A stretch of DNA of 41,141 nucleotides from a virus. Taxonomy: Duplodnaviria; Heunggongvirae; Uroviricota; Caudoviricetes. The stretch covers positions 1 to 41,141 of the IMG/VR virus record IMGVR_UViG_2718218171_000006; one strand, given 5' to 3'. A program made the position numbers and the translations under genes. Position 1 is the first letter of the stretch. The number at the start of each line of letters is the position of its first letter. Below the pieces are notes generated by a model. The model was not told the origin of the DNA, made no database searches, and worked only from the letters and a program-made list of their open reading frames with translations. Positions 31,778-35,479 of this stretch are shown piece after piece.

Positions 31778-32606
31778 GGCGATGCCCTCCGCTGATATTC
31801 AGGAGACGGTGAATATGAAAATTAGCCTTATCCGCCAGACGAATACGTTCAGCCTGCAAGTTAAGAAGGGTTTCTACCAGAACCTGATGCGCCTGCGGAT
31901 CCGAAAGAGTTACCTTGCGCAGAGCACGTAGTGCAGTTGTTACATAACTGAGTTTATGTAAGTCTTCATCATTCAGACGAGAGAGGGCTGGGACAGTAGC
32001 CATGATGGCAGCCTCCGTATGCAATGGATAACTTCCACCACCGGAAACGCCAATTTCGCTGGTGGTGAACTGAGCAGGGTTGGCGTAACCGGCGCATACG
32101 GAAACCGGCGCACCTTTCGGTGCCCCCACCCAGCCCACCATAATTTGGGTATAGCTGAGTTGTAGCAACAAAAAAGACGCTAACGCGCCAATTGTCGCCG
32201 TATGCAATTCCAGGACGCCAATCCCGACACCCGCTTTATAAGGTGCCTGAACAGTGTAACGTCCCGGAATGGCAGAATCAATGTGCTGGTGGTCCTTCAC
32301 ACTCAACAAAATCACGCCTGAATTTCCACAAAGGACTAAAGCACTCATGCGGGTAGTCTTTGCGAAGATAGATAACGCGCTGTGTTTCTGGCTCCCAGCG
32401 AATAACATGGACATAAAGCCCTCTTCCGTCACGAAACCAGCGGTTAAGTTCCTGCACAACTCGCCCCCCACAGTCAGGTAAAGTTCTCTGTGGTTACTTA
32501 CAGCAAGGTGATTTGGTAATCTGCATTCATGCCGTAACAACAGGTGTTCAGCGACGCTGACTACCAGCTGTTGCGACAAACGGTTATTTGCCGTTAAACT
32601 GTTCAT
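31770..32606 (-). CDS. Hypothetical protein (between cII-like and O-like genes)
   Basis: 278-aa ORF, 4-nt overlap with the cII-like gene; no motif recognised. Confidence 0.45.
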   Translation of the reverse strand: MNSLTANNRLSQQLVVSVAEHLLLRHECRLPNHLAVSNHRELYLTVGGELCRNLTAGFVTEEGFMSMLFAGSQKHSALSIFAKTTRMSALVLCGNSGVILLSVKDHQHIDSAIPGRYTVQAPYKAGVGIGVLELHTATIGALASFLLLQLSYTQIMVGWVGAPKGAPVSVCAGYANPAQFTTSEIGVSGGGSYPLHTEAAIMATVPALSRLNDEDLHKLSYVTTALRALRKVTLSDPQAHQVLVETLLNLQAERIRLADKANFHIHRLLNISGGHRHA

Positions 32607-33398: not shown

Positions 33399-33488
33399 AC
33401 AATATGTACCTCCGGTGTACATATTACATGATTGAGATGAACCTTCAAGATACTTGTACCTTAACGGTACAAGGGTTTTAATTTCGTT
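33399..33488. promoter_or_regulatory. Immunity operator/promoter region (OR; divergent pR and pRM)
   Basis: Inverted repeats ATGTAC-N7-GTACAT (33404..33422) and CTTGTACC-N5-GGTACAAG (33453..33473); minus-strand TTGAAG-16-TAATAT overlaps the first; plus-strand TTGTAC...TTTAAT ends ~8 nt before the cI ATG. Confidence 0.55.
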
Positions 33489-34163
33489 ATGAAAACAGTC
33501 CATGACATCCGGCGGTCTAACGCCAGAAAACTGAGAGATGGTGTTGGCGGGAATTCTTCCTTTGCCACCATGATTGATCGCGAGCCAACCCAGACCAGCA
33601 GGTTTATGGGAGATGGTGCAACTAAAAATATCGGTGACAGCATGGCACGGCACATCGAAAAATGTTTCGACCTGCCTGTCGGATGGCTTGATCAAGAACA
33701 CCAGACAACGAACATCACAAAAAAACCTGATGTTTCAATCACTAACAAGCAAATAACGTTAGTCCCTGTCATATCATGGGTACAGGCCGGAGCATGGAAA
33801 GAAGTTGGCTATTCTGAGGTTGATTTGAGCACAGCAGAAACTTATCCCTGCCCTGTACCCTGTGGCGAAATGACTTATATCTTGCGGGTGATTGGTGATT
33901 CAATGATTGATGAATACCGCCCGGGAGATATGATTTTTGTTGATCCTGAAGTACCTGCCTGCCACGGTGACGACGTTATTGCATTGATGCACGATACAGG
34001 TGAAACCACCTTTAAAAGGTTGATAGAAGACGGAACACAACGTTATCTCAAAGCATTAAACCCAAACTGGCCAGAGCCTTACATTAAGATCAACGGTAAT
34101 TGTTCCATAATTGGTACTGTGATTTTCTCAGGAAAACCAAGGAGATACCAAATTAAAGCCTAA
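33489..34163 (+). CDS. CI-type prophage repressor with C-terminal S24 (LexA-like) autopeptidase domain
   Basis: 224 aa; N-terminal HTH; C-terminal ILRVIGDSM Ser-Lys dyad motif; divergent from cro. Confidence 0.85.
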   Translation: MKTVHDIRRSNARKLRDGVGGNSSFATMIDREPTQTSRFMGDGATKNIGDSMARHIEKCFDLPVGWLDQEHQTTNITKKPDVSITNKQITLVPVISWVQAGAWKEVGYSEVDLSTAETYPCPVPCGEMTYILRVIGDSMIDEYRPGDMIFVDPEVPACHGDDVIALMHDTGETTFKRLIEDGTQRYLKALNPNWPEPYIKINGNCSIIGTVIFSGKPRRYQIKA

Positions 34164-34175
34164 TCAATATTTATG

Positions 34176-34198
34176 AACCTGCTTCGGCAGGTTTTTTT
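34176..34198 (+). terminator. Intrinsic terminator downstream of cI
   Basis: AACCTGC-TTCG-GCAGGTT hairpin followed by TTTTTTT. Confidence 0.6.
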
Positions 34199-34202
34199 AT
34201 AC

Positions 34203-34235
34203 TTGACAATGTACCCTTGAGATACATAATGTACC
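34203..34235 (+). promoter_or_regulatory. pL-like early-left promoter with overlapping operator (OL)
   Basis: TTGACA(34203..34208)-17 nt-ATAATG(34226..34231); spacer contains ATGTAC-N7-ATACAT, one mismatch from the OR repeat. Confidence 0.5.
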
Positions 34236-34339
34236 TATATGAAACAGCGAACAGGCAGGATGCCCACGAAGTAGCCGCCCGGGGCATATGAAGACCGGGA
34301 TGATTCGTTAGCAACAAAAAAGCGCCGTACCGGACACTT

Positions 34340-34352
34340 CGCTCTTTAACAA
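34340..34352 (+). promoter_or_regulatory. boxA antitermination element in the pL leader
   Basis: CGCTCTTTAACAA: contains the 12-nt rrn boxA consensus GCTCTTTAACAA exactly. Confidence 0.5.
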
Positions 34353-34397
34353 TCTGATCCCCATCAACAAGTAATTGATAACTTGAGGAAGTGTGAA

Positions 34398-34604
34398 ATG
34401 CACAAAACAGAACCAAAAATCGTCGCGCCAGGCTACACAGATGAGGAAATTTACGAGTGGATGACAAAGAAGCTGGCTGCTATAAACCAGCTTCGTGAAG
34501 TGCAGTCTTATCGTCAGGAAACAATAGACTCCTTAAAAAAACTAGATCAGGAGATCACATCTTTATCGCAAGAATCTACTCTAGATATTGTTCATACAAA
34601 TTAG
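34398..34604 (+). CDS. Hypothetical small acidic protein (first ORF downstream of pL)
   Basis: 68 aa from ATG 34398 with GAGGAAG RBS; coiled-coil-like; no family recognised. Confidence 0.4.
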   Translation: MHKTEPKIVAPGYTDEEIYEWMTKKLAAINQLREVQSYRQETIDSLKKLDQEITSLSQESTLDIVHTN

Positions 34605-35010
34605 GATCCCATTCTTTTTCGTCAAAGTTATCAAAGTGATAAATTTGAGATCTCCAGTCTAAATTATCTAAAAAATCCTTAGCTCTTTTACTCATTTTAT
34701 CAAACGTCAATTCATCCTGAATAGAAAGAATAAGATCATCAAACTCCATTTCATTAATTTTTTTTGGTGTCCAATGATGTTTCATAAGAATAAGGTGAAT
34801 CAACGCATTTTTCCCTTTCAATTGATTATAGGGTGTGCTGAATTTCTTTCTATGCTCATATAGTACAAGATCAAGCAAAGTCAGGAATGCGGCTCTTGAT
34901 TCAACCTTAACTTTATCGACTGTTTGAACTATTCCACTAGTATTAATACCACGACACTTTCCAACATTTTCACAGTGGGATGCATACAGGTCACGTATAT
35001 AAACAGACAT
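34576..35010 (-). CDS. Hypothetical protein encoded by an AT-rich moron (candidate exclusion/defence gene)
   Basis: 144 aa from ATG 35010 with AGGA-type RBS; hand-counted 60-nt stretches 27-30% GC; the upstream ORF-track extension is a GC-rich read-through. Confidence 0.5.
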   Translation of the reverse strand: MSVYIRDLYASHCENVGKCRGINTSGIVQTVDKVKVESRAAFLTLLDLVLYEHRKKFSTPYNQLKGKNALIHLILMKHHWTPKKINEMEFDDLILSIQDELTFDKMSKRAKDFLDNLDWRSQIYHFDNFDEKEWDPNLYEQYLE

Positions 35011-35296
35011 TCTCTTTTCCTTTTGCGTTGTTGGGGATACCCAGATTAACCGAATCCTTGTTGTTGGGGAATAACCAGGTCCACCTCGCCTGATGTGGCT
35101 AAAAGCAGGCACATAACAACTAAGTATTTTCAACCAGAGAGAATCCTTAGCATTGTGGTGAATGCGGCTCAGCGCACGCGGGTTAAGGTTGAGGCTGACA
35201 GTCGACCTTCTGTGGATACCCACCCGCCTGGTGTGCAACCTTCGCCAGGCACCGGGAGGCACCCGACACCACAACTTTATGCTGTGTGTAGTCCTG

Positions 35297-35342
35297 GCGG
35301 TACCAGCTTGTACCCTTGCTTCCGGCTGGTACCGCTCTTTTT
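35297..35342 (+). terminator. Strong hairpin with U-tract (intrinsic terminator-like) upstream of the early-left genes
   Basis: Perfect 11-bp stem GCGGTACCAGC/GCTGGTACCGC, 17-nt loop, then TCTTTTT. Confidence 0.45.
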
Positions 35343-35479
35343 ACAAAACAGAGAAGAGCATCACCGGACGACGGGCTCATAACCCAATCCATCCGGGCGG
35401 CTGCCACCACAGGTGTTCTTCTCTGTTTTGTGGAGAAACTAATCGGCCTTGCAGGGCCGATATGATGAGGAGCAGCAAA

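Follow-up and report, generated by a model that had tools for sequence, protein, structure and literature searches.

What is encoded between the moron gene and the yfdP gene of an e14/SfV-like lambdoid prophage is the question raised by positions 35011 to 35479 of IMG/VR record IMGVR_UViG_2718218171_000006. The whole stretch analysed, of 41,141 nucleotides (nt), is termed the window and is identical to a lambdoid prophage in E. coli TUM1886. A preliminary description, made from the sequence, treated the interval as a single non-coding leader heading the early-left genes and proposed several roles for it. The interval is instead made up of three separable modules (35011-35133, 35147-35344 and 35343-35461). 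It is non-coding, has a conserved and covarying structure, is related to known RNA families and lies within an operon. It is a variant of the STnc100 and DicF kinds of RNA, with one element uncatalogued in Rfam. The explanation favoured, with moderate confidence, is a modular RNA leader within the early-left (pL) operon, organised like the dicF locus of the Qin prophage and acting through a terminated small RNA (sRNA).

All of the features first listed for the interval are present where they had been placed. The interval is dense in structure, with a fold z of -4.55 on the + strand vs -3.3 on the - strand, and has a GC content of 0.54-0.58 vs 0.29-0.38 in the moron. The hairpin of 11 base pairs (bp) with a U-tract has arms (35297-35307 and 35325-35335) complementary at 11 of 11 positions around a 17-nt loop. 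The inverted repeat is real, its 18-nt arms (35343-35360 and 35414-35431) being 94% complementary, and the direct repeats are also present, GTTGTTGGGGA being exact at 35027 and 35060 and extending, with indels, to 35027-35044 and 35060-35078. The ‘second boxA’ is not supported as a meaningful element: CGCTCTTTTTACAA corresponds to the 3′ arm of the terminator stem together with the U-tract, and it lacks conservation. At the position of its CGCTCTT string, relatives have CGCCCTT, CGACCTT or CGTCCTT, and CGCTCTT is found only in the window and 2H10 types. The place at the head of the operon is also lost. Because pL and its operator are at 34203-34230, the interval lies approximately 900 nt inside the pL transcript and not at its start.

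The second module begins with a five-helix pseudoknotted core of the STnc100 superfamily (Table 1). The covariance-model scan that had been proposed gave a match to Rfam STnc100 (RF02076) of 36.2 bits (E 2e-4 over the whole window, permissive scan), aligned over model positions 1-206 of 206 and below the gathering threshold of 47 bits. The closing helix, internal hairpins, CCGGG-AGGCA-CCCGG hairpin and terminator of the full-length architecture are all present. Full-model matches are also found in SfV, phiES15 and sal3 and a partial match in ST64B; scores of 30-41 bits were recorded in these four and in L137, L239, L173 and L021. A covariance model built here from the window clade (R1) scores 154.5 bits on the window core, which is its single copy in the window. 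R1 recovers all members over the full model length and finds canonical STnc100 members at 38-71 bits.

An alignment for compensatory changes, also proposed at the outset, found the base pairs of this core to be kept through them. Across 61 relatives, 96.7% of cells pair and 23 of the 29 pairs are changed on both sides, with slid controls at 49% or less, as counted on a covariance-model alignment (A5) which leans towards the modelled structure. A MAFFT alignment of 18 divergent cores (A2) misaligned P3, P4 and P5 and was therefore not used for counting. More than 20 distinct sequence versions of the pseudoknot show its covariation, that of phiES15 being AAGGCUG with CAGCCUU, and cognate pairs average 6.6 complementary nt vs 4.75 for mismatched pairs. 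Diverse members share the closing UGGUG/CACCA, a GC-rich hairpin with a bulge, a short helix enclosing a variable insert, the pseudoknot between a hairpin loop and the strand after P2, and the invariant CCGGG-AGGCA-CCCGG hairpin. The 21-nt family motif has at least 120 matches each in IMG/VR and in species-representative genomes, the latter nearly all from Enterobacterales among the matches listed.

The same region has been annotated as coding. The Prokaryotic Genome Annotation Pipeline (PGAP) calls a frameshifted coding sequence here in an identical genome, and on this account the interval would be a decayed gene of the YmfH family. There is an intact 103-codon ymfH on homologous K-12 DNA (e14, b1142; L135 5070-5389, - strand), which overlies the same RNA cassette with 91.7% identity to 35081-35345, and one weak PHROG match covers residues 60-96. 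However, the frame is open for at least 100 codons in just 3 of 46 distinct close copies, and in the clades of Salmonella, Klebsiella, Cronobacter and type E it is shut by a stop within 0-20 codons. Indels between homologues are not multiples of three, and substitutions are compensatory for RNA pairing. K-12 ymfH itself is probably not protein-coding, because its frame is kept open by the loss of 1 nt from the P5 loop, which is invariant elsewhere. This gene is in the same expression module as ymfJ, xisE and intE, and a ymfH-type stretch is found in 2715 of 5426 complete E. coli genomes (about half). The PGAP open reading frame (ORF) is judged to be spurious and to overlie RNA modules, and a decayed gene is extremely improbable. 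The earlier statement that the interval holds no convincing ORF is thus upheld in spite of the annotation. The decayed pseudogene, which had been named among the refuting findings, is contradicted by a frame that is not conserved while the base pairs are kept.

The STnc100 relatives offer a guide to function. Canonical members are expressed as sRNAs; EDL933 has 11 STnc100 copies, one of which was confirmed by Northern blot (PMC5331693). Relatives including EcOnc27, which sits 3′ of stx2B, and the related sRNA PasD bind Hfq and accumulate as sRNAs (PMC5331693, PMC12711010, 10.64898/2026.05.13.724894). The window unit shares with STnc100, PasD and EcOnc27 the five-helix core closed by UGGUG/CACCA, the near-invariant ACCGGGAGGCACCCGGCACCA, a variable single-stranded spacer followed by an intrinsic terminator, a total of approximately 200 nt and carriage by prophages. 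It differs from STnc100 in P2, which is GCGGC...GCACGC in the window and CCCCC...GGGG in the family, in its score below the threshold, in having no promoter of its own and in the three-way-junction RNA that follows. The window copy is in the early-left operon, whereas canonical copies are late-region elements situated between Q, stx and lysis genes.

Canonical members are stand-alone units, with a -35 (TTGACA-type) and a -10 box 7-8 nt 5′ of P1 (UGGUG), a variable spacer and a terminator. They are autonomous, abundant and Hfq-bound, and the window unit could likewise be transcribed from a promoter of its own, independently of pL, as an sRNA made in the lysogen in the manner of STnc100, PasD and EcOnc27. 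A non-consensus promoter could be hidden in the conserved 38-nt element upstream, and Reg-Seq reported that transcription of the K-12 intE-xisE-ymfH operon has a start site which is weak and condition-specific. Against this, no sigma-70-like promoter for the RNA or the moron passed a consensus scan of 35011-35150 on both strands, and no member of the window clade has the canonical -10 box 7-8 nt 5′ of P1, the mark of the autonomous STnc100 promoter. A sigma-54-like TGGC-N8-GGCA string may be read by eye in the scanned stretch. The 38-nt element is separated from the core by a variable distance of 30 to 330 nt, and DicF, the nearest of the studied analogues, lacks its own promoter. A stand-alone gene is considered unlikely.

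Two further arrangements of the family were seen. Tandem arrays of 2-4 divergent promoter-core-spacer-terminator units are present in viral contigs (L019 2319-3356, L028 368-995, L016, L031, L069 and L090). In phage HK639 the space between Q and the holin gene, where four terminators are annotated, contains one STnc100-family unit (44805-44929).

The core is followed by a DicF-like unit, composed of a G/U-rich single strand and an intrinsic terminator. The terminator hairpin has 13 pairs (-23.7 kcal/mol, z -4.9 vs shuffles) and is followed by UCUUUUU. The single strand UGCUGUGUGUAGUC is kept in E. coli, Cronobacter, Klebsiella and Citrobacter phages and is UGCUGUGUGAAG(U/A)C in Salmonella phages. 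Terminator stems vary among the phages of these five hosts yet stay complementary, and are always followed by CCUUUUUAC. In local alignment to K-12 DicF the window scores 41 and the e14 copy 53, vs 17.2 +/- 3.5 for shuffles (0 of 500 as high). Rfam DicF (RF00039) matches 35283-35337 with 15.9 bits (E 2.4), short of its gathering threshold of 48. A search within the window for a complementary target of the G/U-rich strand gave chance-level matches only. GTAC repeats in the terminator were considered as cI operators and rejected, their spacing being wrong. The suggestion of a small RNA is borne out to the extent that a small-RNA-type unit ending in a conserved intrinsic terminator is present.

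DicF is produced from the polycistronic dicBp transcript, without an internal promoter, as species of 190 nt, whose 5′ end is formed by RNase III, and 53 nt, whose 5′ end is formed by RNase E (10.1101/2023.04.14.536235). As at the dicBF locus of Qin, the window has an sRNA unit (seed plus GGCGGUAYCAG... terminator) with the terminator at its predicted 3′ end, inside a repressor-controlled, polycistronic operon of early-left type in a lambdoid prophage. In both, a structured core of approximately 115 nt (P1, P2, pseudoknot, P4) lies upstream, and core and sRNA together come to approximately 190 nt. A related P5-less core with a similar layout, as read from the sequences, is upstream of dicF in Qin (L441 ~2253-2365) and in phage 2H10. 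There is also a core between dicF and dicB: in K-12 Qin, R1 has a full-length match of 67.4 bits at NC_000913.3 1649449-1649587 (L441 2450-2588), exactly between the two genes, and in a sister clade the type-E core is immediately 3′ of bona fide DicF. By analogy, the 190-nt DicF species would consist of core and DicF and corresponds to 35147-35342 here.

The differences from DicF are also clear. The candidate seed is UGCUGUGUGUAGUCC in the window vs UUUCUGGUGACGUUU in DicF, whose own seed pairs with ftsZ, xylR and pykA. The upstream core of the window is of the P5-containing type, and it is the three-way-junction RNA and yfdP that follow, where Qin has a second core and dicB. The processing demonstrated for DicF is a prediction for the unit described here. 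A literature search found no paper linking DicF and STnc100 structurally, and HnrS (PMC13502914), which was also considered, is unrelated.

Directly after the U-tract begins the third module, a conserved three-way-junction RNA. The branched domain on its 20-bp stem has a folding energy of -40.8 kcal/mol (z -5.3), and its S2 arm carries the nearly invariant CACCGGRYGACGGGCUCAUAACCCAAUCCAYCCGGGC. At least 120 IMG/VR contigs contain it, and Rfam 15 gives no match at E <= 10. When 21 diverse copies were aligned with MAFFT, independently of structure, pairing held in 93.4% of cells (slid controls, 36-52%), and 10 pairs were found changed on both sides. The covariance model of this RNA (R2) scores 109 bits on the + strand vs 37 bits on the - strand and finds a single copy in the window. 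Among the matches listed, a strict CYTTTTT U-tract is directly 5′ in 72 of 125 copies, and the first gene 3′ is YfdP-like in 95 of the 124 copies with a downstream ORF, the remainder having YfdR, an RdgC-like gene, an excisionase or another gene first. As the first gene varies, the three-way-junction RNA serves the operon and not one gene. A small hairpin between it and yfdP (-13.1 kcal/mol, z -3.5) has a covarying stem (GGCGG with CCGCC in ST64B, Kp4866 and phiNP).

Long stems in untranslated operon leaders are known as RNase III sites from the lambda N leader and the early region of T7. The 20-bp near-perfect stem ahead of the first gene resembles these sites, with a conserved internal mismatch in most copies. 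In contrast to them, the RNA is branched, it has approximately 35 nearly invariant internal nt and its RNase III site is putative. The three-way-junction RNA is a candidate RNase III or other processing site, or a candidate protein-binding leader.

From these parts, the following course of events may be proposed. RNA polymerase would start at pL, which in the lysogen would be shut by the cI-like repressor, and would transcribe antisense through the moron, then through the core, the DicF-like unit, the three-way-junction RNA, the small hairpin, yfdP and the recombination and excision genes. Most pL transcripts would stop at the terminator and yield an RNA of approximately 190-200 nt, containing the core and the DicF-like part, as the counterpart of the 190-nt DicF species and the ~200-nt STnc100. 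With most transcripts ending there, the terminator would also be an attenuator for yfdP-xis. An RNase E cut in the A/U-rich stretch after P1 could free a DicF-like base-pairing sRNA of approximately 60 nt, with a seed unlike that of DicF. Read-through transcripts would carry the three-way-junction RNA into yfdP-xis, and its long stem is a likely site of RNase III or other processing, parting mRNA from sRNA.

Read-through also admits a different role, that of a put-type processive antiterminator. The core or the third module would bind RNA polymerase and carry it through 35342 and later terminators, replacing N. Such RNAs are used by the N-less lambdoid phages HK022 and HK639 and are, like the elements here, cis-encoded structured RNAs in early operons; those of the HK022 type suppress downstream terminators in cis through the zinc-binding domain of RNA polymerase beta-prime. 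A search of PHROGs found no antiterminator family and no N-like protein among the small early-left ORFs, which differ between the window, SfV and e14. Both modules have conserved unpaired nt and junctions, as expected of a partner-binding RNA, and the third module heads the early-left gene block whatever gene comes next. However, no sequence within 6 substitutions of the 21-nt motif occurs in the HK022 immunity region. R1 and R2 have no match in HK022 or at the putL-like RNA of HK639 (34187-34312), the sole R1 match in HK639 being in its late region. The put RNAs have two stems and approximately 70 nt and, in HK022 (putL, putR), lie just 3′ of the early promoters, one per early operon. The window modules are approximately 900 nt from pL and single-copy, with no second copy in the pR operon. 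The terminator is an integral, conserved part of the window unit and the third module comes after it, not before. Canonical family members are promoter-core-terminator units upstream of lysis genes, where constitutive antitermination would be harmful.

Neither was the lambda-type nut arrangement found, namely a conserved CGCUCUUA-like boxA by a boxB hairpin together with an N-family protein encoded 3′ of pL. The attenuator among the roles first proposed is retained, as a conserved intrinsic terminator before yfdP can act so. Its put- or nut-like counterpart is set aside, with no similarity to put, an unconserved boxA-like string and no N-like protein. A put-type antiterminator is held to be distinctly unlikely.

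Several points weigh against the terminated-sRNA leader that is favoured here. Neither Rfam family is matched at its gathering score (STnc100 36.2 of 47 bits, DicF 15.9 of 48). The 21-nt motif and the pseudoknot are over-constrained for a passive sRNA scaffold, so the core may have a function of its own which the model does not explain. In Qin, the type-E core is located between the DicF terminator and dicB, immediately before the latter, so cores do not in every case belong to a terminated sRNA. The window also carries substitutions at otherwise conserved pairs. It has A at 35266, where almost all relatives have G, breaking the closing pair of P5, and a mismatched A at 35409 in S4, again where almost all have G; the window copy may perhaps be slightly degraded. 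The transcripts, processing steps, Hfq dependence and targets are inferred by analogy, and RNase III cleavage of the three-way-junction RNA is predicted from helix length only.

Table 1. Features of the interval and of the neighbouring genes, with positions in the window.
Feature	Position	Strand	Remarks
Two direct repeats	35027-35078	+	GTTGTTGGGGATACCCAG, GTTGTTGGGGAATAACCAG; 5′ flank of reverse-strand ECs1072-family moron
Conserved 38-nt element	35081-35118	unassigned	CCACCTCGCCTGATGTGGCTAAAAGCAGGCACATAAC; interleaved inverted repeats CCAC/GTGG, GCCTG/CAGGC, then CACAYAAC
STnc100-superfamily five-helix pseudoknotted core (module 2a)	35147-35281	+	helices 35153-35274
Core P1	35153-60 with 35267-74	+	
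Core P2	35164-68 with 35174-79	+	
Core P3	35180-83 with 35222-25	+	
Core P4	35226-33 with 35243-50	+	
Core P5	35252-56 with 35262-66	+	
Core pseudoknot	35185-91 with 35236-42	+	AAGGUUG with P4 loop CAACCUU
21-nt family motif	35251-71	+	ACCGGGAGGCACCCGGCACCA
DicF-like unit (module 2b)	35275-35342	+	conserved G/U-rich single strand CUUUAUGCUGUGUGUAGUCCU (candidate seed) and intrinsic terminator
Terminator stem	35296-35308 with 35324-35336	+	U-tract 35336-35342
Three-way-junction RNA (module 3)	35343-35431	+	begins directly after U-tract
Basal stem S1	35343-62 with 35412-31	+	20 bp
Arm S2	35364-68 with 35392-96	+	encloses hairpin S3
Hairpin S3	35373-75 with 35383-85	+	
Variable apical hairpin S4	35397-400 with 35407-10	+	
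Small hairpin	35442-35461	+	AUCGGCCUUGCAGGGCCGAU; just 5′ of yfdP Shine-Dalgarno GAGGAG (35467-72), start codon 35480
PGAP ‘frameshifted hypothetical protein’ (YmfH-like)	35155-35465	+	annotated in identical genome
cro-like gene and ymfL		-	gene order near interval
cI-like LexA-family repressor gene	33489-34163	+	
pL promoter TTGACA-16-CATAAT	34203-34230	+	overlaps operator TGTACCCTTGAGATACA; just past cI terminator
Small ORF	34383-34604	+	
AT-rich ECs1072-family moron gene	34576-35010	-	start codon at 35010
yfdP, yfdQ, yfdR and further genes up to excisionase-like gene	from 35480 (yfdP start)	+	3′ of interval

The first module has a different affinity. Homology with SfV, e14, phiES15 and others begins only at 35081, and because of this the stretch 35011-35080, with its direct repeats, can be said to travel with the moron. 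An exact 11-mer repeat is expected approximately 0.04 times in 600 nt, and in Klebsiella and Hafnia phages paired copies of a related motif (CTGTAGGGGT...) stand beside the start codons of morons encoded on the reverse strand, sieB among them. By this reasoning, the direct repeats belong to the moron module and not to the RNA cassette. The conserved 38-nt element that follows is 97% identical in Cronobacter phage phiES15 and occurs too in phages of Salmonella, Klebsiella and Hafnia; the variable DNA that separates it from the core measures 30-330 nt across phages. A stable RNA hairpin or pseudoknot was considered for this element, with thermodynamics against it (z -0.5); covariation cannot be judged, since its stems do not vary. 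It would either serve the reverse-strand moron as a promoter or 5′-untranslated region (UTR) element, or act as RNA within the pL transcript. In Salmonella phage sal3 (L010 ~2385-2470) and Klebsiella phage Kp4866-6 (L007 ~2860-2930), the DNA separating the 38-nt element from the core contains tRNA T-arm-like strings (GGTTCGATTCCAG and GGTCCGTTCGATTCGGACACC); ARAGORN identifies no tRNA at these places.

These observations bear on the proposal that the interval as a whole is the control region of the reverse-strand moron, comprising its promoter, operators and 5′ UTR. In several phages, reverse-strand morons of the ECs1072 and sieB types have their start codons immediately next to the repeats and the 38-nt element, and SfV, e14, sal3 and phiES15 have a TATNCT box after GGTGG on the - strand. 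The window copy lacks this box, and no consensus promoter was detected in it. The proposal accounts for 35011-35133 only. From 35147 onward the conservation is independent of any moron (as in ST64B, phiES15 and Qin), the + strand is favoured and the elements belong to RNA families. As an explanation of the whole interval it is thought quite improbable; what stands of the initial suggestion is the first ~120 nt, which form the upstream region of the moron.

The surroundings of the interval are those of a lambdoid immunity region. Two perfect copies of the cI-like repressor operator motif TGTAC-N7-GTACA (33405 and 33455) lie between the cI-like and cro-like genes (oR, 33405-33471). No copy was found in the interval, the nearest being 900 nt upstream. 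The operator set defines the immunity specificity, which is shared with SfV and 2H10. Approximately 110 nt 3′ of pL, CGCTCTTTAACAA at 34341-34353 matches the rrn-type boxA (UGCUCUUUAACAA) almost perfectly. SfV lacks this string at the corresponding place; in the window it could recruit NusB/NusE to the pL transcript. On the - strand 3′ of the moron there are two terminator-like hairpins, at 34469-34494 (inside the small + strand ORF) and 34319-34340, which probably end the moron transcript converging with pL transcription. In the early-right operon, two RNAs at 32058-32246 (- strand) exceed their Rfam gathering scores, a C4 antisense RNA with 80.7 bits and an Hfq-binding isrK RNA with 58.9 bits. 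The pair is upstream of DUF4222 and ash-family genes and is also present in SfV and ST64B.

For annotation, a stretch called a frameshifted hypothetical protein, or ymfH in K-12, appears to be a structured RNA. STnc100/PasD and DicF, which have been studied separately, seem to be parts of one modular system. This suggests an identity for the unexplained 137 nt of the 190-nt DicF species and for the dicF-dicB spacer. The third module is a widespread covarying motif absent from Rfam 15. The e14 and Qin prophages of K-12 carry the same modules, which makes the system testable in a standard strain. A broader interpretation is offered tentatively, as a possibility and not as the expected outcome: the STnc100-type core would itself be a functional RNA domain, the third module a new class of cis-acting leader and ymfH an RNA locus. 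If so, the core could bind some factor of the host or the phage, or could serve in processing and stability, and phages would deploy it in three settings: at the 5′ end of sRNA morons that stand alone (in some cases as tandem arrays), upstream of DicF-like sRNAs and directly upstream of dicB. The three-way-junction RNA would gate the early-left recombination and excision genes of N-less lambdoid phages, through processing, insulation or antitermination.

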